Shown piece by piece: positions 1,299 through 59,607 of a stretch of 64,000 nucleotides of DNA; positions within the stretch are counted from its first letter, which is position 1, and the number at the start of each line of letters is the position of its first letter. The DNA comes from Candidatus Peribacterales bacterium (lineage in GTDB: Bacteria > Patescibacteriota > Gracilibacteria > Peribacterales > Peribacteraceae). The stretch lies in NCBI GenBank assembly GCA_035289645.1, contig DATDWL010000004.1, positions 29,614 through 93,613 on the forward strand, in the 5' to 3' direction. A model generated the notes under the pieces. The model did not search any database. It saw only the letters and a list, made by a program, of their open reading frames with translations, and was not told the DNA's origin. The position numbers and the translations under genes are program-made.

Positions 1299-2204
1299 AT
1301 GGTGAAGGTGTCGCTTCAGAATAGGCTCCCCACCACCTACCGCGTCGCCGCCATACGTCAGGAAACAGAACATGTGAAGACCTTCACATTCCCCGTGAGT
1401 TTTGGTGCTCTTCCGGGACAATTCATTATGGTATGGCTCCCGGGGTTTGATGAAGTGCCGATGAGTGTTGCCATGGATGATGGCACGGTGACAAAAATGA
1501 CGTTTTTCGATGTCGGCGATTTGACGAAGGAACTTTTTAAGTTAACGAAAGGAGATCTGGTGGGGCTTCGCGGTCCGTTTGGTACGCACTACGAATGGGA
1601 GAAAAACCAGCATTTGATCCTTGTCGCCGGCGGTTATGGCGCCGCTCCCATGTACTTTGTCGCTCAGGAAGCAGTGAAGGATGGTTGCACAGTTGATTTT
1701 GTCGTCGGTGCACGCGGAAAAGAACACCTCCTCTATCTCGATGAAATCAAAGGGCTGAAGAATACGACGCTCCATATTGCAACGGATGATGGATCGGTGG
1801 GGCATAAGGGGTATAACACGGAGGTATTGGAGAAGTTGCTTCATGAAAATGCTTCGTCTCCGCGCCGCAGTGTCATGCTGAGCGAAGTGAGCGAAGCGAA
1901 CGAAGACGAAGCACATGTGCGGCGCTCCGCTCAGCATGACACTTTTTTATCAGTCTTCGCCTGCGGTCCGGAAATGATGATGAAGCGGATCTCCGTGATC
2001 TGTGCAGAACGAAATGTCCCCTGCTTTATGAGTTTGGAGCGCTACATGAAGTGCGGCTACGGCCTCTGCGGCAATTGCGTAGTGGACCCCTTAGGCATTC
2101 GCCTCTGTACTGATGGCCCCGTTGTTTCGAACGATATCATTCAAAGCATCAAAGAATTCGGCACATACCACAGGGACGCACTCGGGAAAAAACACAATTT
2201 TTAA
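1299..2204 (+). CDS. pyrK: Dihydroorotate dehydrogenase electron transfer subunit, with an in-frame palindromic insert
   Basis: PGQFIMVW, RGPFG, VAGGYGAAP, ACGP, and ERYMKCGYGLCGNC...LCTDGPV 2Fe-2S motif; adjacent to pyrD. Confidence 0.93.
   Translation: MVKVSLQNRLPTTYRVAAIRQETEHVKTFTFPVSFGALPGQFIMVWLPGFDEVPMSVAMDDGTVTKMTFFDVGDLTKELFKLTKGDLVGLRGPFGTHYEWEKNQHLILVAGGYGAAPMYFVAQEAVKDGCTVDFVVGARGKEHLLYLDEIKGLKNTTLHIATDDGSVGHKGYNTEVLEKLLHENASSPRRSVMLSEVSEANEDEAHVRRSAQHDTFLSVFACGPEMMMKRISVICAERNVPCFMSLERYMKCGYGLCGNCVVDPLGIRLCTDGPVVSNDIIQSIKEFGTYHRDALGKKHNF
1869..1943. repeat. Palindromic element, type A (GTCATGCTGAGCG ends), inside pyrK
   Basis: Perfect 16-bp inverted repeat agtgtcatgctgagcg (1869-1884) / cgctcagcatgacact (1928-1943). 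Confidence 0.9.
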
Positions 2205-2205
2205 C

Positions 2206-2304
2206 ACGTCATGCCAAGCGAAAGCACGCTTTTCTCGGGCGAGTGAATCCGCCGTGGTGGACGAATCAATCGAGAGACAATGTGCTGAAGCCAAAGCACA
2301 TCGC
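2206..2304 (+). repeat. Degenerate type A arm with a nested degenerate type B arm
   Basis: acgtcatgccaagcg ... aagcacatcgc encloses ttctcgggcgagtgaatccgccgtggtggacgaatcaatcgagagac (about 2232-2278), which resembles 25728-25775. Confidence 0.7.
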
Positions 2305-5235: not shown

Positions 5236-5270
5236 AAGAGTATCTCAACACGTTATAATGTGTTCACAAA

Positions 5271-5478
5271 CGTCATGCTGAGCGGAGTGGAGCGCCCGAT
5301 AGGGCGCGGAGCGCAGTCGAAGCACATCGCGAGGGTGAATTATATCATCATCAGCCTTCATATGAATTATGGTACATACACCAAACGGTGATGTTTGATG
5401 GAAGTGAGTGATCAGTCGCGACGTGCTTCGACTTCGCCCTTCGTCCGCCATGGGCGGACTCGGGCTTCGCTCAGCATG
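5271..5478. repeat. Type A arm pair (REPIN/MITE-like) around an AT-rich spacer
   Basis: cgtcatgctgagcg...agtcgaagcacatcgcga [spacer] tcgcgacgtgcttcgact...cgctcagcatg. Confidence 0.9.
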
Positions 5479-5600
5479 GGCATCTCGGTCTAAAACTTTA
5501 CCTTTGAGTCCCAGACAGCGTTCTTGAGGATAGGGTTTTGGAGAACCGAGGGCAGCACGGTCGCAGCTCTAAGCCAAAAGAAAAAATCTAAAGAAAACGC

Positions 5601-10387: not shown

Positions 10388-10636
10388 TTATGTATCTGAT
10401 AGCGTAACGAGCTTTTCTTTTTCCGCCTTGCTCCACGTCTTCACCTCCGCCTCCCTGTGACGGGCATCTTTGAGTAATGCGAATTCTTCGTGGTAGATGA
10501 TGGCGATCGGTCTCCGAGAGCGCGTGTACTTGGCACCCTTCCCCTCGTTATGCTTTGCTTCACGGGCTTTAAGATCGATGCAGGATCCAGAGTAGAGCGA
10601 TGTATCGCTGCAGCGGGCAAGATAGAAGTAGGGCAT
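10388..10636 (-). CDS. Small GIY-YIG nuclease (UPF0213/YazA-like)
   Basis: YFYLARCSD.SLYSG...R...HNEGKGAKYTRSRRP...REAEVK. Confidence 0.9.
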   Translation of the reverse strand: MPYFYLARCSDTSLYSGSCIDLKAREAKHNEGKGAKYTRSRRPIAIIYHEEFALLKDARHREAEVKTWSKAEKEKLVTLSDT

Positions 10637-13232: not shown

Positions 13233-13288
13233 GTAGAATGAAAATGAACAGTAATGGATGCAATCGCCTTTCTGCGCTCCGCGCAGTA

Positions 13289-18195: not shown

Positions 18196-18273
18196 GTGTC
18201 ATGCTAAGCGAAGTGCCGCGAACATCGTGCCTCGTCTTTATCGCACTCCGCGCGATTTCAATCGATATGACAC
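18196..18273. repeat. Degenerate, internally deleted type A element overlapping the start of the VanW-family gene
   Basis: gtgtcatgctaagcgaagt ... gtgcctcgtctt ... atgacac. Confidence 0.6.
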
Positions 18274-25723: not shown

Positions 25724-26144
25724 ACTTTTCTCGAGCGAGTGAATCCGCCTTTGGCGGATGAACGAGTCGAGAGACAAACCGATGGTACACTGCATTCCTT
25801 ATGTCCACTGGACCCTATTACCTCTACATCATCGAATGTAGTAATGGAAAATACTACACAGGATCGACATCGAATATAGAAAAGCGATGGAAAGAGCACT
25901 GTGATGGGATGGGATGTACCTACACACGGAAATATCCACCAAAAAAACTTGCCTTTGTAAAAGAATTTCAAAGTATCTTTGAAGCTCGTGACAAGGAGAA
26001 GCAAGTGAAAGACTGGAGTCAGGAGAAAAAAAGGAAACTCATTACTGGAGAATGGGAGTAAATGACAAGTCTCTCGACTGCCCGTCACTTACATACATTA
26101 CCTCCATCGTCGGTCACATGTGATATGGATCGCTCGAGAAAAGT
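25724..26144. mobile_element. Putative mini mobile element: GIY-YIG gene between two inverted type B palindromic arms
   Basis: 15-bp perfect terminal IR acttttctcgagcga (25724-25738) / tcgctcgagaaaagt (26130-26144); 11-bp inner IR agtcgagagac (25765-25775) / gtctctcgact (26069-26079). Mobility is inferred. Confidence 0.7.
25801..26061 (+). CDS. Small GIY-YIG nuclease (UPF0213-like)
   Basis: YLYIIECSNGKYYTGST..IEKR..EH..G.G..YT.KY.P......EF.....A...EKQVK.WS..KK..LI. Confidence 0.92.
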   Translation: MSTGPYYLYIIECSNGKYYTGSTSNIEKRWKEHCDGMGCTYTRKYPPKKLAFVKEFQSIFEARDKEKQVKDWSQEKKRKLITGEWE

Positions 26145-33060: not shown

Positions 33061-34589
33061 TATGGCTTTCCTCGAGCGAATGAATCCGAACGGAGTGAGG
33101 ATGAATGAGTCGAGAGGCCTCTCGACTCGTCCGTCGCGACGGACTCGCTCGAGGAAAGCAAAACACCCACCAATCCCCACACTGTATATGCCACAGCCGA
33201 ATCTTCCCACGCATGGAGGAAGAGCGACGCGATGCTGATTCCCAAAAATGCAAGAAAAGCCGGTGAAACATTGATGATGGAAAGCCGTTTGAGAATTATG
33301 AAGCAGAGCGCAAGAAAGAGCGCAAAACCAAGAATCCCAAGTTCGAGACCGATTTGAATGTACCAATTTTCCGGGAGAAGCGGACAATGACACTCTTTTT
33401 GATCAATGGTTGGCTGAACCTGGGTGCGGCCAATAAAAAGACAGAGATCAGACCGATCCTTCGCCCAGCTTGTATCCGCTCCTTCATCAAAGTACAAGCA
33501 TGTATCACTGACTCTATTACTCGCAGGACCAGCAGAACCAAGACCAAACCCGAGTGGATTCTGAATCATGGTCACGATCCCCTCTCGTACGCGCTCGATA
33601 TGATGGCGATTCGAAATACTGCGCTCGATAAGTGATGGCATCGTAGCCATGAGAGTGATAATCGCGAGTATCACAATGGAAAAAAGTGTCATCAATATGT
33701 GCATTCTCCGCTTTCCGTGAATATTCACACTGATCGCAATGACCGTGATCACAAATGCAGCAATCCATGCGGAGCGGGAGAAAGTGAGAAGGAGGGCGAA
33801 TGCGATGAGAAGAAGGAATGGAATGTTTCGTCTTCGGCGCGCTGTGTCATCCTGAGCGAAGCCGGAGCGAAGCGACGGCGAAGACGAAGGGCGGTACAGC
33901 GCGCCTTCGCTCAGCATGACACATAGTCCCACACTCCAAGGTATCAGCAGCCATAATCCAAATTGATTCGGTCCGGAAAACGTGGACTGGATGCGACGAA
34001 TGCCGGTATTCGAGATATGCTGAAATGCGGAAAGGGATGAGCCCGGCGCATAGATGGAATGCGCATCGCTGTAGCCGAGTGTCGTGAAGAATCCCTGCGG
34101 GAGGAAAAATGTAAGAATACCATACGCAGCAACAATTCCTCCGATGATGAATACAGCTGGATACATTCTCTTCTCTAAAAAATCCTGATCCCATGGGAGC
34201 CACGCGAGGAGGAGGAAAAAAATGAGCGGAATAAAATCATACTTAAACCCAAACACAAATTGTGTGAGTGACGATGGCGCGCCATTGATGAAAAGAATAA
34301 TGGCAACAGCGAGCAGACCAAGAATGCACCACGTCGGTGCATCGAGACGAAACTTCCATCGTCCACCCTTGATCATTATGAGAACACTCTTCCAATCTGC
34401 CATCGCAAGCTCAACAATGCCAACGAGAAAAATGAACGCAATAAGCACCTCCTTCCAGATTGCAAGAAGTGGCATCGGCGCATGGCCGTATCCTTCGATC
34501 AACCGAGTTCCCACTGTCACAAAGAGTGCATGGAGCGGGAGGAGGACGAAGAGGATCAGGAGGAAATGATGACGTAGTTTGCGGAGCAC
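33060..34589 (-). CDS. O-antigen ligase (WaaL/Wzy_C) family membrane protein with two palindromic inserts
   Basis: RI.STFSGPN..G, LTFSRSAW, P.G.GLG, ENWY.Q...E.G..G; GTG start 6 nt after TATACT. Confidence 0.85.
   Translation of the reverse strand: MLRKLRHHFLLILFVLLPLHALFVTVGTRLIEGYGHAPMPLLAIWKEVLIAFIFLVGIVELAMADWKSVLIMIKGGRWKFRLDAPTWCILGLLAVAIILFINGAPSSLTQFVFGFKYDFIPLIFFLLLAWLPWDQDFLEKRMYPAVFIIGGIVAAYGILTFFLPQGFFTTLGYSDAHSIYAPGSSLSAFQHISNTGIRRIQSTFSGPNQFGLWLLIPWSVGLCVMLSEGALYRPSSSPSLRSGFAQDDTARRRRNIPFLLLIAFALLLTFSRSAWIAAFVITVIAISVNIHGKRRMHILMTLFSIVILAIITLMATMPSLIERSISNRHHIERVREGIVTMIQNPLGFGLGSAGPASNRVSDTCLYFDEGADTSWAKDRSDLCLFIGRTQVQPTIDQKECHCPLLPENWYIQIGLELGILGFALFLALCFIILKRLSIINVSPAFLAFLGISIASLFLHAWEDSAVAYTVWGLVGVLLSSSESVATDESRGLSTHSSSLRSDSFARGKP
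33065..33159. repeat. Empty type B arm pair (no GIY-YIG), encoding the ligase C-terminus
   Basis: gctttcctcgagcga (33065-33079) / tcgctcgaggaaagc (33145-33159); centre gagtcgagag-gc-ctctcgactc. Confidence 0.9.
33843..33923. repeat. Type A element inside the O-antigen ligase gene
   Basis: tgtgtcatcctgagcgaag / cttcgctcagcatgacaca, one mismatch. Confidence 0.88.
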
Positions 34590-34637: not shown

Positions 34638-36023
34638 CTAGCCCACATTCAATCTCCCCTCCTCCGTCCTATACACTTCCCCACTTTCAAGCACCTTCAT
34701 CACAATATCGATCGATTTCTTGCTCACGTCGTTGCCATAAATCTTCGGCGCTTTCTTCATGGCCTCATTCCCCCACGCGTATTTGATAATATTCGCGATT
34801 GCGGTGGAATCGACCGGCGGCGCGATGAGGTTGCCTCCACCGAGAATACTCTCCGATCGATCCGATCCAAAGCGGAGCGTCACGCAGGGAATGCCAAGTG
34901 CATTCATTTCTTCCTGCATCGATCCGCTATCCGTTGCGCACACGGCGGCTCTGCTCATTGCAGCAATAACATCCACGTACTCCGGCCACACATCCGAGAG
35001 AATAAAGTGTGGATATTTTTTAGCAAGCATTTCGATTTCGGTGGTGAGCCCAAAGCGTTCGAATGCCATCTTCGTTTGATTCATGTTGATGAGGAGAACT
35101 TTTCTCCCCTCTTCGATGAGCATCTTCATAGCGCCATAGATCGCCATGAATCTCTTTTGATCTGTGCAGTTCTCTCGGCGGTGGATGCAGAATCGTACAA
35201 AGTCGCCGTCCTTGAGTATGGGATACCGATCAAACACCGTTGATTGATCGATACGACTCATCGCTTCCTCCATGGCATCGGCAACGGAATTTCCAACGAC
35301 AAAAATGCGATCCTCTGGAAACCCCTCCGCAAGCAGAAACTCTCGATCGAGTTCTACCGGTGCAAAATGGATGCCCGTCGCGCACTCACTGCAACGCGTA
35401 TTAAATTGCTCGGGATAAGGCTCGAGTGACCCACGCGTCCAGTTCTTCCGATCCATGAGGAATGTCCTCCACAAGTCGCCGAGCTCTACTACGTCATGCT
35501 GAGCGAAGTCCGAGGCATGAGCCGAGGACGAAGTCGAAGCACGTCGCGAGGACATCACTTTTTTCCACTCGCTGTAATCCGGCGTCAGTGTCCTAATCCC
35601 CGCCTCCACATGGACTGATGCACATTGATGGCAGTAGCCGGCATTACTTGCCGCCATCGCCGTTGTTGTATCGCCATGGACATACGGAATGACAATTTTG
35701 CCGCGAGCTTTGAGCTCGGCGATGATATGCCCAAGGCGTCCGATGATCTGCGAGACAACTTCGTGCATGTGCCCGCGCACATTCAAATTAAAATCCGGCT
35801 CCACGCCGAATTCTTTCAACATTCCTCCGCTTAAGTTTTCATCGTAGTGCTGACCTGTGTGGCCGAGGAGAACGCACGCCCCGCGCTTTTTGAGTTCTTT
35901 GTAGAGTGGGATTTGTTTGATGATATCCGGCTTCGTTGCAATCATGATGAGGTGCACATGGGCATCTGTATGATTGGCGCAATCATCGTAGAACCTCTGT
36001 GAGCGGTAGGTAATATCTTCCAT
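34638..36023 (-). CDS. wecB: UDP-N-acetylglucosamine 2-epimerase, with an in-frame insert
   Basis: ATKPDIIK, HTGQHYD, VHGDT, HVEAGIRT, PE.FN, HRREN, TDSG.MQEE. Confidence 0.9.
   Translation of the reverse strand: MEDITYRSQRFYDDCANHTDAHVHLIMIATKPDIIKQIPLYKELKKRGACVLLGHTGQHYDENLSGGMLKEFGVEPDFNLNVRGHMHEVVSQIIGRLGHIIAELKARGKIVIPYVHGDTTTAMAASNAGYCHQCASVHVEAGIRTLTPDYSEWKKVMSSRRASTSSSAHASDFAQHDVVELGDLWRTFLMDRKNWTRGSLEPYPEQFNTRCSECATGIHFAPVELDREFLLAEGFPEDRIFVVGNSVADAMEEAMSRIDQSTVFDRYPILKDGDFVRFCIHRRENCTDQKRFMAIYGAMKMLIEEGRKVLLINMNQTKMAFERFGLTTEIEMLAKKYPHFILSDVWPEYVDVIAAMSRAAVCATDSGSMQEEMNALGIPCVTLRFGSDRSESILGGGNLIAPPVDSTAIANIIKYAWGNEAMKKAPKIYGNDVSKKSIDIVMKVLESGEVYRTEEGRLNVG
35491..35549. repeat. Single type A arm inside wecB
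   Basis: acgtcatgctgagcgaag...gaagtcgaagcacgtcgcga. Confidence 0.88.
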
Positions 36024-38798: not shown

Positions 38799-41120
38799 GT
38801 GCCAGCGAATCTCGTCATTGTGGAATCTCCTGCAAAGGCAAAAACCATTAAAAAATTTCTTGGGAAGGATTTCGCCGTGGAAGCAAGCATGGGTCATGTG
38901 CGCGATTTGCAGGAGAAAAAATTGAGCGTCGATGTGAAGAATAATTACGAGCCGACCTACGAAATTCCCGAGGGGAAAAAAACAGTGATCAAAAATCTAC
39001 AGAAAGCGATGAAGACTGCCGAGCACCTCTGGATCGCGACTGATGAAGACCGCGAAGGGGAGGCAATCGGTTGGCATCTTCTCCACGCGCTCAAAGTGCC
39101 GGTGAAGGAACATAAGAGCGTCAAACGCATCGTCTTCCACGAGATCACGAAGGAAGCGATCGAAGCAGCGATAGGAAACCCGCGCACGATTGATCAAAAA
39201 CTCGTAGAGGCGCAGCAAGCACGGCGCATTCTCGATCGCTTGGTGGGGTACACGCTCTCGCCATTCCTCTGGGCGAAAGTATACCGAGGCCTTTCGGCAG
39301 GCCGCGTGCAATCTGTTGCCGTGCGGATTATTGTGGATCGCGAGAAGGAGATTCAAGCATTCAAATCAGATGAATACTGGACGATTGATGCGGAACTGCA
39401 AACGAGTGGTAAAGAAATTTTTCAAGCATCACTCACAAAGCTCAATGGAAAAAAGTACGTACCGGACAACGAGAAGGATGCAACAGCCGTAGTCGAAGCG
39501 GTGCAGGGGAAAAAGTTTTCCGTCCACGAGATCGAAGAAAAGAAGGTGCAGAAAAATCCTTCTCCTCCGTACACAACGTCCACTCTCCAGCAGGATGCTT
39601 CGAATAAACTTGGCTTCTCGGTAAAGCAAACCATGGTCGTCGCCCAGCAACTCTACGAAGGCGTGAACCTTGGGAAGGGCGAGGGGCAGACCGGTCTCAT
39701 CACCTACATGCGTACGGATTCCGTGAATTTGAGCGCGAAGGCTCTCACCGATTCCGAAGAGATGATTCAGAAACTCTTTGGACGCGAATATATTTTAAGC
39801 AAGCCCCGCACGTTCCAAACGAAAAGTAAAAATGCACAAGAGGCCCACGAAGCGATTCGTCCAACAGAGCTCCACAGAACGCCCGAAAGTCTTGCCGGAG
39901 TGCTCGATGATCCTCAACTCAAACTCTATACGCTGATCTGGAAGCGAACGATGGCAACGCAAATGCCCGCAGCGGAATTGAAGCGCGTGGGAGCCGATAT
40001 TGCCGCCGCGGAGTATATGTTTCGCGCAACGGGACAGACGGTGGAATTTGATGGGTATTTGAGGGTGTATGAAGAAGAGGATGATACCCAGAGCTTAGGT
40101 GAAAAATTCCTCCCCAAGCTTGCAGAGGGACAGGAACTCACGTGCACCGGAATACTGCCGGAGCAGCACTTCACTCAGCCGCCGGCTCGCTACACAGAGG
40201 CTTCACTCGTGAAGAAGTTGGAAGAAGAAGGCATCGGCCGTCCGAGCACCTATGCTCCAACGATCAGTACCGTTCAACAGCGCGGCTATATTCGGAAAGA
40301 TGGAAGACAGCTCATTCCAGAAACCGTCGCATTTACGGTCACCGATCTTTTGATCGCGCACTTCCCCGATATTGTCGACCTCAAATTCACCGCCAAAGTC
40401 GAGGACTCGCTCGATGAAATCGCAACGGGAAAAGTGGAATGGGTACCCTTTATGGATTCATTTTTTAAACCGTTTAGCGCCCTCATCGAAAAAAAGAAGG
40501 AGGAAGTAAAGAAGGAAGATGTCCTCAAAGAAGCAATTCTTGGCAACGATCCGAAGACCGGATTCGAAGTCATCGTGCGCACGGGAAGATTCGGCAACTA
40601 CGTGCAGCTTGGTCGGCCGGAAGATTACAAAGGCACCAAGAATAAGCCGAAGAGTGCATCACTCCCGAAAGGTATCGTGAAGGAAGAGGCAACGCTCGAG
40701 CAGGCGCTGTCGCTCCTCAGCTTCCCAAGAATCCTCGGGGAAAAGGATGGTCAGGATGTCTCGGCAAATCTTGGCCGCTTTGGTCCGTATCTGCGGTGGG
40801 GAACAGTGACAGTCACGCTGCCGCCCGAGGTCGATCCCACACATGTGACGCTTCAGGAGGCTGAAACATTGATTGCAGAAGCAGCGGAGAAGCGGAAGCA
40901 AATGGCTGAACCAATCCAGAAGCTTGGCGCTGATCCAACGAGCAGTGGAGAAATTCTGGTGAAGACCGGCCGCTACGGGCCGTACGTCACCGATGGCAAA
41001 ACGAACGCATCGCTTGGGAAGAAATTTGATCCGAAGACTCTCACCCGTGACGAAGCAATCGAGATCTTGGTAAAAAAGCGCGCCCGCGGTCCCGGAAGAA
41101 AATGGGGGAAGAAGAAGTAA
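38799..41120 (+). CDS. topA: DNA topoisomerase I
   Basis: LVIVESPAKAKTI, ATDEDREGE, SAGRVQS, ITYMRTDS, GRFGPY C-terminal repeats. Confidence 0.97.
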   Translation: MPANLVIVESPAKAKTIKKFLGKDFAVEASMGHVRDLQEKKLSVDVKNNYEPTYEIPEGKKTVIKNLQKAMKTAEHLWIATDEDREGEAIGWHLLHALKVPVKEHKSVKRIVFHEITKEAIEAAIGNPRTIDQKLVEAQQARRILDRLVGYTLSPFLWAKVYRGLSAGRVQSVAVRIIVDREKEIQAFKSDEYWTIDAELQTSGKEIFQASLTKLNGKKYVPDNEKDATAVVEAVQGKKFSVHEIEEKKVQKNPSPPYTTSTLQQDASNKLGFSVKQTMVVAQQLYEGVNLGKGEGQTGLITYMRTDSVNLSAKALTDSEEMIQKLFGREYILSKPRTFQTKSKNAQEAHEAIRPTELHRTPESLAGVLDDPQLKLYTLIWKRTMATQMPAAELKRVGADIAAAEYMFRATGQTVEFDGYLRVYEEEDDTQSLGEKFLPKLAEGQELTCTGILPEQHFTQPPARYTEASLVKKLEEEGIGRPSTYAPTISTVQQRGYIRKDGRQLIPETVAFTVTDLLIAHFPDIVDLKFTAKVEDSLDEIATGKVEWVPFMDSFFKPFSALIEKKKEEVKKEDVLKEAILGNDPKTGFEVIVRTGRFGNYVQLGRPEDYKGTKNKPKSASLPKGIVKEEATLEQALSLLSFPRILGEKDGQDVSANLGRFGPYLRWGTVTVTLPPEVDPTHVTLQEAETLIAEAAEKRKQMAEPIQKLGADPTSSGEILVKTGRYGPYVTDGKTNASLGKKFDPKTLTRDEAIEILVKKRARGPGRKWGKKK

Positions 41121-41123
41121 CCG

Positions 41124-41229
41124 CTTTTCTCGCCTGCCCGCCGAGGTGGGAGCGAGTGCTGAGCGAGTCCGCCTTTGGCGGACGAGTCGAAGAACGAGTC
41201 GAGAGACGGTGCAATCTCGCTCGAGAAAA
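41124..41229. repeat. Composite type B element with a nested inner arm and an 18-bp micro-element
   Basis: ttttctcg[cctgcccgccgaggtggg]agcgagt gctgagcg...agtcgaag aacgagtcgagagac ... ctcgctcgagaaaa. Confidence 0.85.
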
Positions 41230-41233
41230 ATTA

Positions 41234-41566
41234 TCAGTCGTGCACCCTCTCGATTTTGGTCACCTCCCACACCCCATCAACAGGTTTTGATTCCACAAGG
41301 TAATCGTAGGGAGCACACGTGAGTATGTGGAAGCGAGATTCCTCTGTGCTTTGGATTCGTTCTACTCTTGTACAATCTCGCAACATGAAGAGTCGAGCAA
41401 GATCGCTGCTATCTCCCGCACCAAGTACTTCCCCCGAAAGGCGTAATTCCGATCGCGAAAGTAGTGCAATCACGAAGACTGCAGCAACCGAAAGGAGCGA
41501 GATGCCGAGGAATTGCAGGCGTATTGCCTTGCGTGCGGGGATGTGTTTGGATCGTTTGTTTGTCAT
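41234..41566 (-). CDS. Hypothetical single-TM protein
   Basis: 110-aa ORF; TATAAT 6 nt upstream of ATG. Confidence 0.65.
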   Translation of the reverse strand: MTNKRSKHIPARKAIRLQFLGISLLSVAAVFVIALLSRSELRLSGEVLGAGDSSDLARLFMLRDCTRVERIQSTEESRFHILTCAPYDYLVESKPVDGVWEVTKIERVHD

Positions 41567-41767: not shown

Positions 41768-42223
41768 ATGCAGCTCTCGCACCTTCGTGGCCGCAAGATT
41801 GTTGATCGCGTACGCAGTAAAGGCGCACGTTTTCGCGGAAAACACATGAATATCACATATGTCATGGGAATGCCTCGCACGACAATGGGGAAGAACCTCT
41901 CGACTCACTCATCCTTCGACGGACGCTACGCGTCCGCTCAGGATTCGTTCGCTCCCACCTCGGTGGGCAGGCAAGGAAAGCATTTTTTCGTCGGCACCAC
42001 CGCTTCCACCAAGCTCGATAAATCTGCAGTGAGGAGAAATCGCATGCGTCGACGCTGCCGTGAAGCACTCAGACTTACTGCGAAAGAACGACAAAAATTA
42101 CCTGTATGCCAATTGCTCATCTCGCCGCGTTCCTCTAGCCTAGATTGCGCATTCCAAGAGCTCCAGCGCGATGCGGTGGAATTTCTTACGTCGCTGGAGA
42201 AGACGCATATACACCGTTCGTAA
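41768..42223 (+). CDS. rnpA: Ribonuclease P protein component, with a roughly 28-aa repeat-derived insert
   Basis: VG...STKLDKSAVRRNRMRRRCREA (RNR motif); position between rpmH and yidC. Confidence 0.92.
   Translation: MQLSHLRGRKIVDRVRSKGARFRGKHMNITYVMGMPRTTMGKNLSTHSSFDGRYASAQDSFAPTSVGRQGKHFFVGTTASTKLDKSAVRRNRMRRRCREALRLTAKERQKLPVCQLLISPRSSSLDCAFQELQRDAVEFLTSLEKTHIHRS
41896..41981 (-). repeat. Composite type B arm inside rnpA
   Basis: Reverse complement gctttccttg[cctgcccaccgaggtggg]agcgaacga atcctgagcg...gtcgaaggat gagtgagtcgagagg. Confidence 0.85.
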
Positions 42224-45147: not shown

Positions 45148-46509
45148 CTACACCATCCTTTCTGGATCCAACATTTTCTTAAGTTTCGCTTTGGGAATAG
45201 TCGTTCTCCACGATGCAACCTCCAGAATCGTCTCTCCTTTCGCCATAGCCTCTTTCGCAATCTCCGCTGCTTTTTCGTACCCGATCAGAGGCGTAAGAGC
45301 TGTGACAAGCATTGGGCTCCTCTCCAGGCGATATTTGATACTCACAGAATTCGCTTTGAGCCCATGCATGCATTTTGTTGCAAAAACATGAGTGACATTC
45401 GTGAGAAGCATCATGGTGGTATGGAGCTTGGAAGCAATGACTGGATATCCTGTACAAAGCTCAAATCTGCTTATATACGCAATAGATTGCGTAATCGTAA
45501 CATCGCCCCCCATGATGAACGCAGCGACTTGCTCCACGCTTTCGCAGAGAACAGGGTTTACTTTGCCGGGCATGATGGAGGATCCCGCTTGAAGCTCTGG
45601 AAGGATGAGTTCGGCAATGGCATCCGATCCCATCAGGCGGATATCACTCGCAATCTTTGTGAGGACGATGGCGACTTCGATAAGAGCAGAGCTGAGAGAT
45701 TTGAGTGCGAGAGGACAGGACTGCGCTGCGATATGATCCTCGGCTTCGTCGAGCGGAAGCTGTGTCTCTTTTTTGAGTGCCGCAATGACTCGCTTTGCAA
45801 ACTGGGGATGTGCATTGATCCCTGTGCCAACCGCCGTACCGCCGAGCGGAAGAATGCAGAGCTTTTCTATAGCCTGTGTGAGTGATTCAATCACCTGTAC
45901 AAGGAGTGATGAGTACGATCGGAATTCATCGGAAAGCCGAATGGGGGCTGCATCCATAAGGTGCGTACGACCGACTTTGATGATGGGAGCAAACTCTTTC
46001 TCCTTCCTCGAAAGCTCTTTGATGAGGAGCATAAGCGCAGGAATGAGTTCATCACGAACCTTGAGTGCACTGCTGATCTGCAGAGCGCTTGGAATCACAT
46101 CATTACTCGATTGGCATCGATTTACATGATCGTTGGGGTGAATTTGAGCCGCTTTTCTCGAGCGAGCGAATCCGCCATCAGCGGATGAGCGAGTCGAGAG
46201 ACCTATCGACTGATTGGCAAGCTCTGCAATCACCTCATTCATATTCATATTCGTGCTCGTCCCCGACCCTGTCTGGAAAATATCCACAGGGAATTGATCG
46301 AGGTGGCTCCCTCTTTTGATCGAAGAAGCAGCCTTTGTGATAGCTGCAGCATGACTCTTTGGGATTTCTCCGAGCGCTCCATTCACCATCGCTGCATGCG
46401 CTTTTATAAGCGCAAGCGCCATGAGGAATTGGGGCGGCATCCGCCATCCGGAGATGGGGAAGTTCTTCATTGCAGCCTCCGTATGCTTTCCGTAGGGTTT
46501 TTTTGGCAC
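45148..46509 (-). CDS. fumC: Class II fumarate hydratase (FumC/AspA family), with an in-frame insert
   Basis: QTGSGTSTNMNMNEV, HPNDHVN..QSSND, GRTHLMDA, GSSIMPGKVNP. Confidence 0.88.
   Translation of the reverse strand: MPKKPYGKHTEAAMKNFPISGWRMPPQFLMALALIKAHAAMVNGALGEIPKSHAAAITKAASSIKRGSHLDQFPVDIFQTGSGTSTNMNMNEVIAELANQSIGLSTRSSADGGFARSRKAAQIHPNDHVNRCQSSNDVIPSALQISSALKVRDELIPALMLLIKELSRKEKEFAPIIKVGRTHLMDAAPIRLSDEFRSYSSLLVQVIESLTQAIEKLCILPLGGTAVGTGINAHPQFAKRVIAALKKETQLPLDEAEDHIAAQSCPLALKSLSSALIEVAIVLTKIASDIRLMGSDAIAELILPELQAGSSIMPGKVNPVLCESVEQVAAFIMGGDVTITQSIAYISRFELCTGYPVIASKLHTTMMLLTNVTHVFATKCMHGLKANSVSIKYRLERSPMLVTALTPLIGYEKAAEIAKEAMAKGETILEVASWRTTIPKAKLKKMLDPERMV
46151..46202. repeat. Single type B arm inside fumC
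   Basis: gcttttctcgagcgagcgaatccgccatcagcggatgagcgagtcgagagac, closely similar to 25725-25775. Confidence 0.9.
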
Positions 46510-48270: not shown

Positions 48271-48285
48271 GGTAGACTGTCACTG

Positions 48286-49377
48286 ATGCACGCCTTCATC
48301 CTCGCCGGTGGATTTGCCACACGACTGTGGCCGCTCACGGAAAAGAGAGCAAAGCCTCTCTTGCCGCTTGCGGGGGTTCCTCTCCTCACCCATCTTGTCG
48401 AAAAGATTCCTGCAGGAATTCCAATCACAGTGAGTACGAATGCAAGATTTGCAGAGGATTTTGAGGAGTGGAAACATTCACGTCATGCTGAGCGGAGTGA
48501 AGCTTCGCAGAGCGAAGCGGAACGAAGTCGAAGCACGTCGCAAGGATCAGAAGAATCAGCACCGAACTCAATGCGAGATGCTTCGACTCCGCCCTTGCAG
48601 GGCTCCGCTCAGCATGACGTATCTATACTTATTGAAGACTCCGGCCACGAAGATGAAAAATTGGGAGCACTCGGCGCTGTTGCAAAATGGATCGTGGAGG
48701 AAAAAATCGATGATGATGTTCTGCTCCTCGCAGGGGATAACTACATGGGATTTTCGATTGCATCGTTCATTGAACGCTTCACGGGGAAACCTCTCCTTGC
48801 CGCATACGATATTCGATCAAAGGAAGCGGCAAAAAAGTTCGGCATTGTTCTTACGGAGAACTCATCGAATGCATCCGGGACAATTCGTGTAACGGGATTC
48901 CAAGAAAAACCGGCGGAGCCTCAATCGACTCTCATTTCCACTGGATGCTATTTGCTTCCTGCGGAATCGCTCCAAGAGCTCATGAGTTTTTCTCAATCGC
49001 ATCCCGATAACATCGGTGGTGTCTTCGAGCATTTCCTCAGCGAAGGAACGGAAGTGGAATGCGTCTCCTTTGGAGAACCGTGGTTTGATATCGGATCATT
49101 CGACGCATATTTGGAAGCAACAAAAGTTCTCGTGGGAGAGCGGGTGCTGCGCGGGGAAAAAACTCTCGAGCGCGATACGGAGTTCCACGGGAGCAATGTC
49201 ATCGGCGATAACTCCAAAATCGCCCGATCAACGCTCACGAACGTCGTACTGTTTGAACACTGCGAGGTGGAAGACTGCGTGCTCGAAAACTGCATCGTGG
49301 ATGATGGATGCATCCTGCGTGGGGTGGATTTGAGCGGAAAGATGCTACGGGCTGGAACACACCTTGTGCAACGTTAG
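48286..49377 (+). CDS. NDP-sugar pyrophosphorylase (nucleotidyltransferase), with a roughly 47-aa insert
   Basis: ILAGGFATRLWPLT...AKPLLP, AGDN, FQEKP, WFDIG, C-terminal hexapeptide repeats. Confidence 0.92.
   Translation: MHAFILAGGFATRLWPLTEKRAKPLLPLAGVPLLTHLVEKIPAGIPITVSTNARFAEDFEEWKHSRHAERSEASQSEAERSRSTSQGSEESAPNSMRDASTPPLQGSAQHDVSILIEDSGHEDEKLGALGAVAKWIVEEKIDDDVLLLAGDNYMGFSIASFIERFTGKPLLAAYDIRSKEAAKKFGIVLTENSSNASGTIRVTGFQEKPAEPQSTLISTGCYLLPAESLQELMSFSQSHPDNIGGVFEHFLSEGTEVECVSFGEPWFDIGSFDAYLEATKVLVGERVLRGEKTLERDTEFHGSNVIGDNSKIARSTLTNVVLFEHCEVEDCVLENCIVDDGCILRGVDLSGKMLRAGTHLVQR
48480..48620. repeat. Complete type A arm pair inside the nucleotidyltransferase gene
   Basis: 18-bp perfect IR acgtcatgctgagcggag / ctccgctcagcatgacgt; inner agtcgaagca / tgcttcgact. 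Confidence 0.92.
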
Positions 49378-49378
49378 C

Positions 49379-49556
49379 TACGTCATGCTGCCTGCCCTCC
49401 GGAGCAAGAGCGAAGGTGGGAGCGGAGCCCCGAGCTCGGCGAGAGGCGAAGTCGAAGCACCTCGCTAGGCTTACACCATTTCAGAAATCGCGACGTGCTT
49501 CGACTTCATCCTACGCATCCTAAACGGATGCTCCGGATTTCGCTCAGCATGACGTA
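49379..49556. repeat. Intergenic type A arm pair with a 30-bp micro-element in the left end
   Basis: tacgtcatgctg[49391-49420]agcgga...gaagtcgaagcac ... gtgcttcgacttc...cgctcagcatgacgta. Confidence 0.9.
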
Positions 49557-49612
49557 TTTGGTGTAGTTTCTGCGTTTCCTTCCATCCATTTTCCACTTAC
49601 ACTGTCCCAGAC

Positions 49613-52600
49613 ATGGTGGATTCCAAGCTCCGCACCTACGGCTATCCCGCGGCGATTATCCTCGTCGCACTATGGATTTCGGTCATCGCTCTGCCTTCGG
49701 GGTGGAAGGGGTCCGCACCGGCGTTCTTAAAGCCCTCGCTCCATTTGGGACTGGATTTACAGGGCGGAACTCAGCTTGATTTTAGGATCAGCGAGGCAGA
49801 AATGGAGAAGCAAATTGAGCAACTAAAGACGGAAATTGCCGCGATCGAGGCTGCCGATGGATCCTCAACGGAAATCGCCGATAAACGAGCGCAAATCAGC
49901 AACATCGAATACCAACAGCAGAATATCGTGGAAGCGATTCGCACTGTTTTGGAACGGCGCGTGAATGCCCTTGGCGTTTCGGAAGCGGTGATTACTCCGT
50001 CGTACTATGGGAACGAGAAGCACTTCCTTGTGGAATGTCCCGGCGTTGTGGATGTGCAGCAGTGCATCAATACCGTAGGGAAAACAATCCTCCTTGAATT
50101 CAAAGAGCAATTCGAAGGCGAGGATGAATCGCACATTGCGGCGATGCGCGCGCTCGCGGAAAAGGTTAATAAGCGCATCACGCAGTCCGGCGAGACGCTT
50201 GCAACCGCAGGACAGGATGTCAGTTCCACGCTTGGCGTGTTCTACACCGACGAAGCATCATTCTTCCGCAGCGAACTTCCGGAAAGCATTGCGGATGTAT
50301 GGAACCGCACCGTCGATTCGCCCATTCTGATGCGCGAAGTGAACCTGGGTCCCGTGCCCGTCGGTGACGGTACGGTCGAAAACAGAGGCATGATGTTTGT
50401 GGAGGTCACGGGCGGAAAAATCGAAGCAGAGCGCGCACTCTCCGATCCAATTGCTGCCATGGGCTATCTTGCGGAAATGGAGGAAGCAATCACATTGAAG
50501 AAACATACGAATGAAGATCCAGCATCAATCGATGCAAGCGTGCGCGCCACCCTTGGCGATAACACGGATGTCGGCACTCTGCTCAAAGCAGAGAACACAA
50601 AGAAGGAGCCCGTTGTCCTGCTTGTCACAAGATATGTGGAGCCGGTCGAAACAATCGAAGCAAGTCACATTTTGATTGCGTATCAAGGGGCAGTGCGAGC
50701 GGAGCCTACCGTCACTCGTGCAAAAGAACGAGCCGAGCAGCTTGCGCGGGAAGTGATGAAACGAGTTCAGAATGGCGAAAATTTCGAGAAACTCGCACGC
50801 GAATTGAGCGATGGTACTTCCGCCAAAGAATCAGGAAGACTTGGTGAATTCGGGCGCGGAGAACAGGCGTCAGCGTTCGAAAACGCCGTCTGGGATCTTG
50901 GCGTCGGAGATGTCACCGGTCCGGTCGAAACAGAATTCGGTTACCACATCATCCGAAAAGATCGCGGCATAAAGACGAAACCGGGTTCCATTGATTACGA
51001 GGAATTGGTCTTCACAGGAGAGAACGCCGCAACGCTTCAGGCGGATACCTTCACGAAGCTCCAAAACCGCGCTGTGACGAAGAAAGATGAACAGATGAAG
51101 CTTCGCACACTCTTCTTTTCGTTCCTCCCAACAGGATGGAAGGACACCGCTCTCGATGGCAAACATTTCCGCAGAGCATCGGTAACAACGGATCCGACAA
51201 TTGGCGTGCCTGTCGTCCAAATTGTTTTCGATGAGGAAGGCGGCAAACTCTTCCAAGAGCTCACGAAGAAAAATATTGGCAAGCCGATTGCGATCTTCGT
51301 TGGCGGCGAGCTCGTCTCGGCCCCCAATGTCCAACAGGAAATCGCGGGCGGCACGGCGGTGATCACGGGATCAAATAATTTTGATGAGGCGAACCGCCTC
51401 GCGCAGGATTTGAATACAGGAGCAATCCCCGCTCCCATTCACCTCATGGGGCAAACGACGATCGAAGCGTCACTCGGCGGCGCTGCATTGCAGAAATCAA
51501 TCATTGCGGCGCTCATCGGCTTTGCGCTTGTCGGTCTCTACATGATTGCTTCGTATCGCATCCTCGGCGTCGTTGCCATGCTCTCGCTGTTTGTGTACGC
51601 CGTTATTTACCTTGCCATCGTCAAGCTCCCGCTCTTCCTCTTTACGCAGCAATACATCGTTCTCACGCTCGCCGGTGTCGCCGGAGTCATCCTCAGCATC
51701 GGCATGGCTGTGGATGCAAATATCCTCATTTTTGAGCGCCTGAAGGAGGAACTGAGGAAAGGAAAACTCTTCACAACCGCAGTGGATATCGCATTCCGAA
51801 GAACATGGGCTCCCATCCGCGATTCGAACCTCTCCATCATCATCACCTCGGCAGTGCTCTTTTTGATCGGGACATCGATCGTGCGCGGCTTTGCGGTCAC
51901 ACTCGCCATGGGAGTGCCTATCTCCATGTTCACGGCAATCATCGTCACGCGCTTCTTCGTCTCGCTCCTCGCACATTCACCCATCAGCCAAAATCTTGCT
52001 GCGTTTGGAGTGGAACTAAAATCAGAAGAACAGAAAGTTGATGATGCCGCTCCGGTTCGCATCATCTTCGTCAAATTCGCAAAACTCTTCCTTCCTGTCT
52101 CCACAATCCTCTGCGTGTTCGCGCTCATTCTCCTCGTTTACCCGGGTCCAAAACTTGGGATCGAATTCATGGGAGGAACACTCATGGAAATTCAGATTGA
52201 TGCGGAAAATACGAAAGACGATCTTACCGCCTCCCTTGCTGCATTCCCGTCCGAAGATCCTCTCGATAATGTGTCGATCTTCGCAGCAGAGAATGCAGCG
52301 GGCCCCTCGTACCTCATGCGGTTCCGCCTGCTCACGAACGAAGAGCACCTTGCACTCCTTAAACACCTTGGCACGGAACTTGGCACGGTAAAGGAGCTCA
52401 AGTTCACAACAATTGGCCCTAGTGTCTCCGCGACACTCAAGGAGAAATCGTTCATCGCGCTTGCCTGTGCCTCGGCTGCCATCATTTGCTACCTCGCGCT
52501 CGCATTTAGGAAAATCCCTCGACGTCTGAGTTCGTTCAGGTTTGGTGTCGTCGCGATCGTCGCTCCACTCCACACGATTCTCCTCATGGTGCTGCTCTTT

Positions 52601-54446: not shown

Positions 54447-54650
54447 ATGAAGCCTACGACTGACTTACAAACTGCCTTCTTTTGCATCATCGTCGATGCA
54501 AATGCCACAACAAATCTGCAGGATCATGCTGAAGAGCATGGTTCTGGTGCGTGGGGTTGGGAAGATAGTGACGATGACGATTATGATCCTGGTATGTGGG
54601 GTTGGGGAGATAGCGGTGACTGTGGAGAGGGGCCTGGCCTGAACTGGTGA
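54447..54650 (+). CDS. Small acidic Gly/Trp-rich peptide
   Basis: 67-aa ORF preceded by TAAGGA; G.WGW.DS.D occurs twice. Confidence 0.45.
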   Translation: MKPTTDLQTAFFCIIVDANATTNLQDHAEEHGSGAWGWEDSDDDDYDPGMWGWGDSGDCGEGPGLNW

Positions 54651-54738: not shown

Positions 54739-55067
54739 ATACCCCTCCATCAAATGCGGAGAGCGTGTGGCACGGCATACCCGAGACTTAACATTAATCA
54801 CGGAGACATCTAATTCGAATAATGATCTCCGAGGTAGGCCGTGCAGAGCCAGATTGTCCCAAAGCGTAGATGGTGTTGTCTCTGCACGGGCCACATCGGA
54901 GATACAAGACCACGATGAAGTGCTGAAAAACTATATCTCCACTTTCGTGTGTCCCGTGACACACTTCATCAATCTTCCACGATGGGCTGTTAAAAAACAT
55001 CAATAAATCCCAAAAACTATCATTCCTCTATCTCGTGCCCGTGCCATACGCGCTACACTGCTCTTCC

Positions 55068-55676
55068 ATGCCGCAATTCAATGCTCACGTCCGGCAAGGA
55101 GCATATCTGCCCCACTGGACGAAGGAGGGGGCAACGTACCATGTGCGATTTCGACTGGCAGATTCGATGCCGCAGCACATCCTGAAGGAATGGCAGGAGG
55201 AAAAGAAGGAACTCCTGCTCAAAAGAGAGCAGAAAAAGGGAGGGCTTACAAAATCAGAGGAGGAGAGACTCCGTGAACTCTCATCCGAAAAAGTTGAGCA
55301 CTATTTGCATCAAGGATATGGCGCCTGTTTTCTCAGGCAGGATCTTGTTGCTAAGATTGTTGCAAATGCTTTACGAAAGAACGATGGAAAACAATACCGT
55401 CTTATCGCATGGTGCATCATGCCAAATCATGTGCATGTTATTCTCACTCCACTGACTCAGGAACTCCATCGAATTGTGAACACATGGAAAAGTGCATCCG
55501 CACGGAAATCAAACAGATTTCTCAAACGAGCAGGAGCATTTTGGCAAACTGAATACTTCGATCATTTGATCAGAAATGAGGAGAACTTCCATCATGCAAT
55601 CGAATACGTCTGGAATAATCCTACCGAAGCTGGCTTAAAAGAATGGAAATGGCGATGGAAAGCAGAAGAGTATTGA
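55068..55676 (+). CDS. REP-associated tyrosine transposase (RAYT)-like HUH Y1 transposase
   Basis: LPHW...GATY.V.FRLADS, WCIMPNHVH (HUH), FWQ.EYFDH.IR, Y..NNP. Confidence 0.9.
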   Translation: MPQFNAHVRQGAYLPHWTKEGATYHVRFRLADSMPQHILKEWQEEKKELLLKREQKKGGLTKSEEERLRELSSEKVEHYLHQGYGACFLRQDLVAKIVANALRKNDGKQYRLIAWCIMPNHVHVILTPLTQELHRIVNTWKSASARKSNRFLKRAGAFWQTEYFDHLIRNEENFHHAIEYVWNNPTEAGLKEWKWRWKAEEY

Positions 55677-57662: not shown

Positions 57663-57765
57663 TATTGATTGAATAGATTATTATTACGCCCTTACTCAAC
57701 ATTCCTAGCCTACCAAACCTACTTAGCTCAATTCACCTCCCTAATCCCAGCCCTACCCCCACTTC

Positions 57766-59607
57766 ATGCCCCTCCTCCATCCGCGCTCCATCGTCATCCT
57801 CGACTTCGGCGGGCAGTATGCGCACCTCATTGGGAACCGTGTGCGCAAGCTCGGAGCGTTTTCGGAAATCCATGATCCGGAAATCTCCGCAACCGAACTG
57901 AAAGGCGCTGCCGGCATTATCCTCTCCGGCGGTCCGCAGAGCGTGTATGACCCGAACTCGCCAAAAACAGATCCAAAAATTTTTGACCTTGGCATCCCCG
58001 TCCTCGGCATCTGCTACGGCCACCAGTGGATGGCGCAGGCACTCGGCGGCGAAGTACATGAAGGAAAAATGAAGGAGTACGGCTACAGTGAAATTCAAAT
58101 AGTGGAAAAGGGTGGCGCACTCTTCGATGGACTCAAGACTGATTTTACCGTCTGGATGTCACATGGGGATGAAGTCACCAGACTTCCCGCAGGATTTGTA
58201 AAAACAGCGACTTCGGAGATCTGCACTATCGCCGCAATGGCCGATGAAAAGCGAAAATTCTTCGGTGTGCAATTTCATCCGGAAGTCGCACACACCGAAA
58301 ACGGATTGGAGATTCTTCGGAGGTTTCTTGATTACTGTAATGCAGCCCACTGGGAACTGAGTAACGTGCTCGATCATCTGGAAAAAGAGATTGAAGCAGA
58401 AACAAAAGGCCGCAATGTCTTCATCCTAGTTTCCGGCGGCGTAGATTCCACCGTGGCATTCGCCCTGCTCAATAAGACACTGGGGGTCGATCGTGTGTAC
58501 GGCCTCCTCATCGATCACGGACTCATGCGTAAAGGGGAAATGCACGAAATCGCAGATTCATTCGCAGAGCTCGGATTCACCAATCTCCATATCGAGGATG
58601 CTTCCGCGCAATTTCTGGAGAAGTTGAAGGGGATCACGGATCCCGAACAGAAGCGTCAACTCATTGGTGATACGTTTCTGGCGGTACAAGCGGAAGTGGC
58701 GAAACGCCTCAATTTGGATGGACCCCAATGGATGCTCGGACAGGGAACAATTTATCCCGATACCATCGAAACCGGCGGCACCAAACATGCCGATCATATT
58801 AAAACCCACCACAACCGCGTCGCAGCAATCGAAAAAATGATCGCGGAGAAAAGAGTGATAGAGCCGCTGAAGGAACTGTATAAAGATGAAGTGAGGGTTG
58901 TCGGCGAAAGCCTCGGACTCCCGCACCACCTCGTGCATCGGCATCCGTTTCCGGGACCCGGTCTTGGGGTACGCATCCTCTGCGCTCAAAAACCATCACC
59001 GCTTACGAAGAAGGAAGAAGATGAGATTGCCGTCGATTCAAAAATCTATGTCTTCCGTTCCCTTCCCATCCTCTCTGTTGGAGTACAGGGTGATAGCAGA
59101 AGCTACAAACATCCACTTGCCGTCTTCCTCCAAAAACCATTTTCGGATCTCCGTTCTATACACGGACTTGCAACGGCAATCCCCAACACCCACAAACAGA
59201 TTAATCGAGTTCTCGTTTGTGTTTCCCATCAGAAGGTTCCGGAATTCATCTTCACGCCCACCACAATCACCCGTGATCTCGCAGAGACGCTGCGCGAGGC
59301 AGATCACATTGTGAGTCGAGAAATGCGTGAAGAGGGATTGGAGGATAAGATCTGGCAATTTCCGGTTATCCTGATCCCCATTGGAGTAAAAAAAGAGGGA
59401 CGACTTGCCGGCTGCAGCTCGACGAGCGAAGGCCGGTCAATTGTGCTCCGCCCAGTGGAATCGCAGGAAGCCATGACGGCAAATGCATTCCACTTGACCG
59501 AAAAGTTCCTCGTGCGCGTGACGAAGAAAATCCTCGAAATCGAGGGGATTGATATGGTGTTTTATGACGTCACGAATAAGCCGCCCGCAACAATTGAGTG
59601 GGAATAA
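57766..59607 (+). CDS. guaA: GMP synthase (glutamine-hydrolysing)
   Basis: ILDFGGQY, LGICYG, QFHPEV, SGGVDS, IKTHHN, RHPFPGPGL, KPPATIEWE. Confidence 0.97.
   Translation: MPLLHPRSIVILDFGGQYAHLIGNRVRKLGAFSEIHDPEISATELKGAAGIILSGGPQSVYDPNSPKTDPKIFDLGIPVLGICYGHQWMAQALGGEVHEGKMKEYGYSEIQIVEKGGALFDGLKTDFTVWMSHGDEVTRLPAGFVKTATSEICTIAAMADEKRKFFGVQFHPEVAHTENGLEILRRFLDYCNAAHWELSNVLDHLEKEIEAETKGRNVFILVSGGVDSTVAFALLNKTLGVDRVYGLLIDHGLMRKGEMHEIADSFAELGFTNLHIEDASAQFLEKLKGITDPEQKRQLIGDTFLAVQAEVAKRLNLDGPQWMLGQGTIYPDTIETGGTKHADHIKTHHNRVAAIEKMIAEKRVIEPLKELYKDEVRVVGESLGLPHHLVHRHPFPGPGLGVRILCAQKPSPLTKKEEDEIAVDSKIYVFRSLPILSVGVQGDSRSYKHPLAVFLQKPFSDLRSIHGLATAIPNTHKQINRVLVCVSHQKVPEFIFTPTTITRDLAETLREADHIVSREMREEGLEDKIWQFPVILIPIGVKKEGRLAGCSSTSEGRSIVLRPVESQEAMTANAFHLTEKFLVRVTKKILEIEGIDMVFYDVTNKPPATIEWE
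59404..59436 (+). repeat. 33-bp micro-element in frame in guaA
   Basis: cttgccggctgcagctcgacgagcgaaggccgg resembles 49391-49420; removing it gives EGR|SIVLRPVES. Confidence 0.65.

Follow-up and report, generated by a model that had tools for sequence, protein, structure and literature searches.

The 64,000-nucleotide (nt) stretch of DNA analyzed here, called the window below, comes from a Candidatus Peribacterales bacterium (assembly GCA_035289645.1, contig DATDWL010000004.1, positions 29,614 to 93,613). It carries short palindromic repeats of two families, A and B, in the reading frames of conserved genes and in the spacers between genes, together with one complete cassette in which such repeats flank a small gene for a GIY-YIG nuclease. 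The host genome (G000) comprises 1.17 Mb in 19 contigs, with 50% G+C and an estimated completeness of 99.5%; sampled genomes of its phylum range in size from 0.4 to 2.1 Mb, and DNA of the window recurs in metagenomes from groundwater and soil. Plain coordinates count from the first letter of the window, and C2, C4, C7, C17 and C18 denote contigs of G000, C4 being the one that bears the window. Two relatives are named individually: G001, a genome of the same genus (the congener), and G015, from another genus of the same family.

An earlier note on this DNA had quoted seven peptides encoded by palindromic elements inside seven open reading frames (ORFs). We found all seven peptides where it had placed them, in frames that stay open, and alignment revealed that every one of them is an insertion relative to orthologues. 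Specifically, pyrK (ORF 1299-2204, +) contains a short full family A element, a hairpin, at 1868..1944 (located by a motif pair and by nhmmer matches to its halves at C4:31462-31558), which makes the protein 25 amino acids (aa) longer than that of the congener, the segment being absent or much shorter in all 11 aligned orthologues. The O-antigen ligase ORF (33060-34622, −) holds two elements. A short full family A element lies in frame at 33842..33924 (motif, nhmmer and folding), where the protein is at least 21 aa longer than four orthologues of its family and only 9 aa longer than that of the congener, which has an unrelated segment there. The second, a full family B element at 33062..33162 that the earlier note had overlooked, forms the 3′ end of the ORF (repeats, nhmmer, orthologue alignment and folding); it encodes the last ~31 residues, and the ORF is 22 aa longer than its orthologues. 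In wecB (34638-36023, −), the left half of a family A element is inserted in frame at 35489..35553 (+; nhmmer C4:65101-65164, E 1.2e-15; alignments), adding ~20 aa relative to three orthologues. The congener carries a different, longer insert at this same site, and the A and B profiles found no match in the congener's inserts of either wecB or the ligase; the wecB loop may be an insertion hot spot or a site at which one element has been replaced by another.

The remaining genes hosting elements lie farther along the window. A family B half element is in frame in rnpA (41768-42223, +) at 41893..41985 (−; nhmmer C4:71505-71597), and RnpA is 29 aa longer than its counterpart in the congener (five orthologues aligned). 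Another family B half, at 46148..46219 (+; nhmmer C4:75763-75816, E 7e-14), is in frame in fumC (45148-46509, −) and corresponds to a 16-aa unaligned insert relative to the solved fumarase chain 3rrp_A of the PDB; among five relatives, G001 alone has fumC, in a copy broken by a contig end before the insert site. The nucleotidyltransferase ORF (48286-49377, +) contains a full family A element at 48478..48622, with outer and inner repeats and the nuclease gene missing (repeats, half alignment, nhmmer, folding and a structural model). This element encodes a 46-aa insert and makes the protein 39-41 aa longer than all five orthologues; it takes the place of 7-8 residues found in each of these, which indicates that the insertion came with a small deletion and was not a clean addition. 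Finally, guaA (57766-59607, +) carries at 59401..59436 (+) an in-frame insertion of exactly 33 nt, or 11 aa, relative to five of five orthologues. Neither blastn nor nhmmer found another copy of it in the genome, and its folding is not unusual (z −1.2), so that it is a real insertion that cannot be shown to belong to either family. The claim of palindromic elements in seven genes thus stands for six as regards membership in these families (pyrK, the ligase, wecB, rnpA, fumC and the nucleotidyltransferase) and fails for guaA, and in three of the six (wecB, rnpA and fumC) the insert is half an element and not a palindrome.

Both families are abundant in the genome. The end of family A reads GTCATGCTGAGCGRAG, with the terminal inverted repeat (T)ACGTCATGCTGAGCGRAG and the inner inverted repeat GAAGTCGAAGCAC, and that of family B reads CTTTTCTCGAGCGAG, with the terminal repeat GCTTTTCTCGAGCGAG and the inner repeat GAGTCGAGAG. 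When up to two mismatches were allowed, the terminal motif of family A matched the genome 65 times (0 in shuffled genomes) and that of family B 51 times (2.7 in shuffled genomes). Profiles of half elements, each corresponding to one end, gave 66 A and 44 B matches in a whole-genome nhmmer search (E ≤ 0.01), and these 110 matches merge into 78 loci that cover 7.5 kb. Full copies fold far better than expected when each element is compared with 200 shuffles: z-scores were −5.0 for pyrK, −4.1 for the internal A element of the ligase, −6.9 for its terminal B element and −7.6 for the nucleotidyltransferase, and in all four cases none of the 200 shuffles folded as well. The half-element inserts are weakly unusual or not unusual in this respect (wecB, +0.3; rnpA, −2.0; fumC, −2.4); they are single halves and, taken alone, not notable palindromes.

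Family members also lie between genes of the window. A family B half at 2225..2282 (+) is located just past the pyrK stop codon (nhmmer C4:31840-31894, E 6e-11; half alignment), a full family A element with outer and inner inverted repeats around a ~80-nt centre occupies 5268..5484 (repeat finding and nhmmer), a full family B element lies 3 nt after the topA stop codon at 41119..41234 (repeat finding, half alignment and nhmmer), and a full family A element at 49376..49557 begins at the stop codon of the nucleotidyltransferase ORF (repeat finding and nhmmer). A lone 16-nt family A terminal motif with one mismatch, a fragment that gave no nhmmer match, is located at 18198..18213 (+) over the first ATG of an ORF with a VanW domain; the motif itself supplies this ATG, and the true start of the ORF may be downstream.

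The source of these repeats is visible in the same genome: families A and B are the two ends of 420-490-bp cassettes, each of which carries a gene for an 86-94-aa single-domain GIY-YIG nuclease, and this origin of both families had escaped the earlier note. The layout is [outer box, variable hairpin, inner box], then the GIY-YIG gene, then [inner box′, hairpin′, outer box′], and two long "pairs" of terminal motifs each surround a small ORF. Pfam GIY-YIG (PF01541) matches eight small ORFs in the genome, in addition to UvrC, and nested inverted repeats bracket three of the eight. One of the three cassettes is of the A type (G000:C2:2922-3411; nuclease of 94 aa); another, of a B-variant type, lies at C7:207322-207693; and the third, a complete B-type cassette, is inside the window at 25724..26144, with the outer inverted repeat ACTTTTCTCGAGCGA and the inner repeat AGTCGAGAGAC around an 86-aa nuclease ORF at 25801-26058 (+; Pfam GIY-YIG, E 4.9e-19). 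When the halves of the short elements are aligned with the ends of the cassettes, each part (the outer box, the small variable hairpin and the inner box) finds its counterpart, which indicates that a full short element is a cassette minus its gene and that many copies consist of one end. The two nucleases with B-type flanks are closer to each other than either is to the A-flanked nuclease, so that nuclease type and end type vary together.

The cassette in the window overlaps a 518-aa ORF on the opposite strand (24532-26088, −), whose first ~120 codons are the open antisense strand of the cassette. That the cassette lies in frame within this gene was considered and rejected: the orthologue in the congener starts at about residue 137, which places the cassette upstream (5′) of the gene and makes the 518-aa ORF call inflated. 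Elsewhere in the window, an 82-aa small GIY-YIG ORF related to the A-type nuclease by alignment (10388..10636, −; PF01541 match at C4:40028-40249) has flanks without an inverted repeat; it may have decayed or been domesticated. At the very ends of two contigs (G000:C17:1-372 and G000:C18:1-354) lie nearly identical copies of a different small GIY-YIG type, both containing an in-frame TAG, which suggests a repeat that breaks the assembly.

The arrangement of gene and hairpins extends well beyond this genome. When one genome per species was scanned, relatives of the cassette nucleases numbered at least 590, and the 80 best (48-64% identity) belong to Bacteroidota, Ignavibacteria, Nitrospirota, Nitrospinota, Pseudomonadota, Chloroflexota, candidate-phyla bacteria and others. 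Among these 80, inverted repeats scoring at least 14 bracket 39 of the 76 loci with enough flanking sequence, compared with 0 of 76 after shuffling. The ends of the related loci have in common a hairpin in which the stem varies and the loop is conserved; the loop pattern YTGAGC-N2-8-GTCGAAG is present in 30 of the 80 loci, compared with none of 80 after shuffling, and 14 loci have it on each side of the gene. Thus, a gene flanked on both sides by a dispersed hairpin repeat was found in three cassettes of G000, in one of the congener and in 39 of 76 related loci.

The congener has 19 family A termini (control, 1), exact copies among them, and G015 has 53 in variant forms; family B is at the control level outside G000, save for a few near-exact matches in the congener. 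With at most one mismatch, motif A is present in 49 of the 301 genomes sampled from the phylum, chiefly in GTCATC or GTCATT variants, compared with single matches (two in one case) in seven of the 301 genomes for a reversed-motif control. The exact G-variant of the motif was found in G000 and G001, and within the 301-genome sample in G000 only.

From these results, we consider it probable that the inserts are copies of two related non-autonomous hairpin-repeat families that derive from small selfish GIY-YIG cassettes and were mobilized by the cassette nuclease. The closest described parallel is SsnA of N. meningitidis, a single-domain GIY-YIG protein of 94 aa. NTS hairpins (CGTCATTCCCGCG...GCGGGAATC, beginning CGTCAT) lie on both sides of its gene, and SsnA binds the hairpin solely when this is single-stranded DNA, cutting just upstream of it (Chenal et al. 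2025, PMC11893778). According to the same source, 42% of homologues are flanked on both sides, and its authors note a layout resembling that of insertion sequences and list Rickettsia and Wolbachia among repeat-rich genomes (PMC11893778). The A and B cassettes likewise combine an 86-94-aa single-domain GIY-YIG gene with hairpins on both sides, the hairpins are dispersed, nuclease and hairpin co-vary, and the A-type ends begin with (A)CGTCAT, the CGTCAT box that precedes the NTS hairpin. They differ in having composite ends, with two conserved boxes and a variable hairpin between them, and in that ~40% of their loci lie in genes, compared with 2% of NTS in N. meningitidis (PMC11893778). By analogy with Ssn and NTS, the single-domain nuclease would recognize the terminal hairpins as single-stranded DNA and cut beside them. 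Such cutting would drive copying or transposition of the cassette, and copies without the gene would be moved in trans. Insertions would land anywhere, and of those in genes, only the frame-keeping, stop-free ones in tolerant loops or termini would last and be translated as disordered peptides rich in Ser, Ala, Glu and Arg. Mobilization by the cassette nuclease is, in this scheme, inferred from the Ssn parallel, and we describe the A/B element as working like an Ssn/hairpin pair and like the palindromic elements of Rickettsia (see below) while filing it as a member of neither.

Several observations weigh against this interpretation. Among the 15 joints listed, of 34, in contigs of four other samples (depth ~3×), none skips an element. 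Around 20 pairs of A ends and 10 of B ends, no target-site duplication longer than 2 bp is visible; the flanks share only (T)AC...GT(A), which may be part of the repeat, and recognizable ends are absent around five of the eight small GIY-YIG ORFs. The published degenerate SRM motif, which in a positive control matched 24 of 24 instances of the NTS consensus, has two matches in the genome compared with five to nine in shuffles, none of them in A/B loci, and is found in 0 of 80 related loci. The nearest solved structures of the cassette nucleases are the UPF0213 proteins 1zg2 (E 9.5e-23) and 1ywl (E 4.8e-17), a group placed with bacterial Slx1-like proteins in a 2006 classification (PMC1564403), so that the biochemistry of Ssn is carried over by analogy; an NCBIfam search gave no useful name for the nucleases. 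That surviving in-gene copies are translated is read from frame statistics, and the genome encodes two homologues of the Y1_Tnp family, one in the window (55035-55676, +; Pfam E 3e-9) and one at C7:222517-222858.

Repetitive extragenic palindromic (REP) sequences, which are extragenic by definition, resemble the A/B system in that many short hairpin repeats are tied to a single small DNA-cutting enzyme gene. The Y1 homologues therefore raise the alternative that the A and B hairpins are mobilized in trans by IS200-like host transposases of the Y1 type, similar to the REP-associated tyrosine transposases (RAYTs), as is thought for REPs and bacterial interspersed mosaic elements, with the GIY-YIG genes being passengers or homing-type invaders of the loop. 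Y1 transposases are indeed known to act on DNA hairpins (PMC11893778), and no DDE_Tnp_1 transposase was found in the genome. However, RAYTs are typically flanked by their own REPs (PMC11893778), whereas neither Y1 gene of the host has flanking A/B elements, the nearest nhmmer matches being more than 2 kb away, and the physical link is to GIY-YIG genes, in this genome as well as in 39 of 76 loci of other phyla. We therefore regard mobilization by Y1 enzymes as unlikely. A separate hairpin with 27-nt arms (54825-54903) is located just upstream of the Y1 homologue in the window.

Comparison with the congener provides evidence on mobility. At the insert sites of pyrK, rnpA and the nucleotidyltransferase, G001 has no element. 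It does have an A-type cassette that encodes the same MRTFWVYI... nuclease; the sequences on either side of that cassette adjoin each other in G000 (C17 ~81213-81268), whose own A-type cassette is at another locus, on C2. Element presence thus differs between the two congeners for short copies and a full cassette alike. At filled and empty sites, the DNA is ~73-80% identical, too divergent to fix the exact boundaries of insertion. Other inserts, in priA, in a beta-CASP RNase gene and in one spacer, are common to both genomes, with flanks 72-74% identical and elements 77-81% identical; since the flanks are this divergent, these inserts must be old, and in-frame copies can persist for long. The view that insertion is frequent must accordingly be tempered, given the shared, old inserts in priA and the RNase gene.

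A second alternative is that the elements are immobile, being old relics whose similarity is maintained by gene conversion or because the hairpins serve the host (for example, as nuclease targets that control DNA uptake or recombination, as has been proposed for NTS in Neisseria), with the in-gene copies as tolerated remnants. The shared inserts would agree with this, as would the Ssn paper, which argues for domestication (PMC11893778). Contigs of other samples are equally in line with it. Over 31000-50500, contigs of the four other samples carry the elements labeled A4, B4 and B6 unchanged (depth ~3×); the element at 33842..33924 is spanned unchanged by contigs of two other samples and the fumC element by one, and variants with an empty site were not seen among the joints listed for these contigs. 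Yet three in-gene copies of the window and a full cassette differ in presence between congeners, the restriction of the exact G-variant of motif A to G000 and G001 points to expansion within the genus, and intact nuclease ORFs persist. We judge immobility improbable.

The lengths of the inserts in genes are consistent with translation. The distance from motif to motif is 2 modulo 3 in seven of seven intragenic full copies of the ACGTCATG type, compared with 6 of 11 intergenic ones, and this length plus AC and GT makes whole codons. All intragenic copies are free of stop codons in the host frame, and a TGA lies in one of the three frames at each element end. Because the frame is kept, stops are missing, halves without unusual folding are also in frame and no intron family was detected, translation is a better reading than removal, and surviving in-gene copies are probably translated. 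Removal of the inserts before or after translation, in the manner of introns, inteins or excised hairpins and leaving mature proteins normal, is very hard to reconcile with these data even though the hairpins formed by full copies are very stable and RNases specific for double strands could act on them, since frame-preserving, stop-free copies would be needless under removal, half elements without unusual folding are kept in frame as well, Rfam detected no intron or RNA family (a tRNA being the sole match in the window at gathering thresholds, with no match in seven cassette loci at E ≤ 0.1), and the Pfam results contain no intein-like domain.

In the two proteins modeled with AlphaFold from orthologue alignments, the inserts are the sole long low-confidence stretches. 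The nucleotidyltransferase model (mean predicted local distance difference test score [pLDDT], 79.8) has a helix extended to residue 83 and residues 84-107 at pLDDT <50, between strands 47-52 and 112-117, and in the RnpA model (mean pLDDT, 75.9), loop residues 39-69 are at pLDDT <50, between strands 27-33 and 72-76. In both models, then, the inserts are predicted to add floppy loops between confident core elements.

Palindromic repeats inserted in frame are best known from Rickettsia, where the Rickettsia palindromic elements (RPEs) were reportedly first described by Ogata et al. in 2000. They are ~150-bp repeats in ten families, with 44 insertions in R. conorii, nearly half of which lie in ORFs as in-frame fusions (PMC10969869). 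The A and B elements are similar in being dispersed palindromic repeats (~70-180 bp) in a small genome, many in frame in unrelated housekeeping genes, with peptides that are apparently compatible with the fold. In contrast to RPEs, to which we liken them by behavior, they occur in a different phylum, appear to belong to different sequence families, have a visible, autonomous-looking parent cassette and are in many in-gene cases single halves. The earlier view of selfish, frame-preserving insertions that behave like RPEs therefore holds at its core, with the amendments that guaA is not shown to be such a case, that three inserts are halves and that the parent cassette had gone unseen.

Classical MITEs (miniature transposable elements with inverted repeats) descend from insertion sequences that bear a transposase, and they generate target-site duplications. 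Full A and B elements share with MITEs the terminal inverted repeats, the lack of coding capacity of their own and occasional translational fusions (QMITEs of Coxiella burnetii, PMC5896051; reviews by Delihas, PMC2229807 and PMC3184786). They differ in that the parent carries a GIY-YIG nuclease, not a known transposase. In their flanks, no clear duplication longer than 2 bp was seen.

Across the whole genome, 32 of the 78 element loci lie in long open frames, defined as frames open for at least 30 codons on either side of the element and at least 150 codons in total. This count includes two false cases (the cassette at 25724-26144 and a second frame over the ligase terminus) and misses rnpA, which is too short for the rule, so that ~30 of 78 loci, about 40%, are in frame in conserved genes. 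Outside the window, 26 of 28 tested host ORFs contain Pfam domains (E ≤ 1e-5), often on both sides of the element. The proteins concerned include PriA, LeuRS, an AddA-like helicase-nuclease, DinB, RecG, UvrA, UvrC, PcrA/UvrD and an HhH-GPD glycosylase as well as SecA, CarA, CarB, ATCase, phosphoglucomutase, a beta-CASP RNase, a Mur ligase and several glycosyltransferases. A tally by hand of nhmmer-supported cases gave ~19 Pfam-supported genes outside the window, which with the six inside makes ~25. Eight of the ~19 function in DNA repair or replication (priA, recG, uvrA, uvrC, pcrA/uvrD, addA-like, dinB and the HhH-GPD glycosylase gene; loci L135-L162), a share that may be due to long, tolerant linkers or to biased targeting. 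The large effect on the proteome that had been proposed from the seven genes of the window is thus supported at the scale of the genome.

Some small repeats of the window have no relation to either family: a 31-nt direct repeat by a tRNA gene (13220-13366), a 39-nt tandem pair (54530-54613) and a 33-nt inverted repeat in a spacer (60759-60906). Over a conserved part of topA (38812-40113), contigs from other samples are ~10 times deeper than elsewhere in the stretch and show many skipping joints; this excess most likely comes from the topA genes of other organisms and not from the host genome.

Apart from the Ssn paper, taken here without its supplementary data, our literature search turned up no publication that describes palindrome-ended GIY-YIG cassettes within genes or elements of this kind in candidate-phyla bacteria. 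A broader generalization can be offered only tentatively, namely, that single-domain Slx1/UPF0213-like GIY-YIG nucleases might act as the transposase of an undescribed class of hairpin-ended cassettes that spans phyla, is distinct from the Ssn/SRM pairs and is marked by the loop TGAGC...GTCGAAG, and that its gene-less derivatives might be a general source of coding palindromes, among them the ones in ultra-small groundwater bacteria and possibly also in Rickettsia.

Palindromic inserts that keep the frame have largely been regarded as a curiosity of Rickettsia with no known parent; here, the parent is visible as a cassette, and its layout of gene plus hairpins recurs around relatives of the nuclease in many phyla. 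This joins two literatures, that on RPE-like coding repeats and that on hairpin-associated GIY-YIG nucleases acting on single-stranded DNA, and gives a testable route by which such repeats spread. For the organism itself, ~25 conserved genes with extra peptides in 1.17 Mb, at least one inflated ORF and one replaced C-terminus mean that annotation, orthologue alignment and structure prediction should allow for these elements. The pairs of nuclease and hairpin may also widen the set of sequence-specific cutters of single-stranded DNA.

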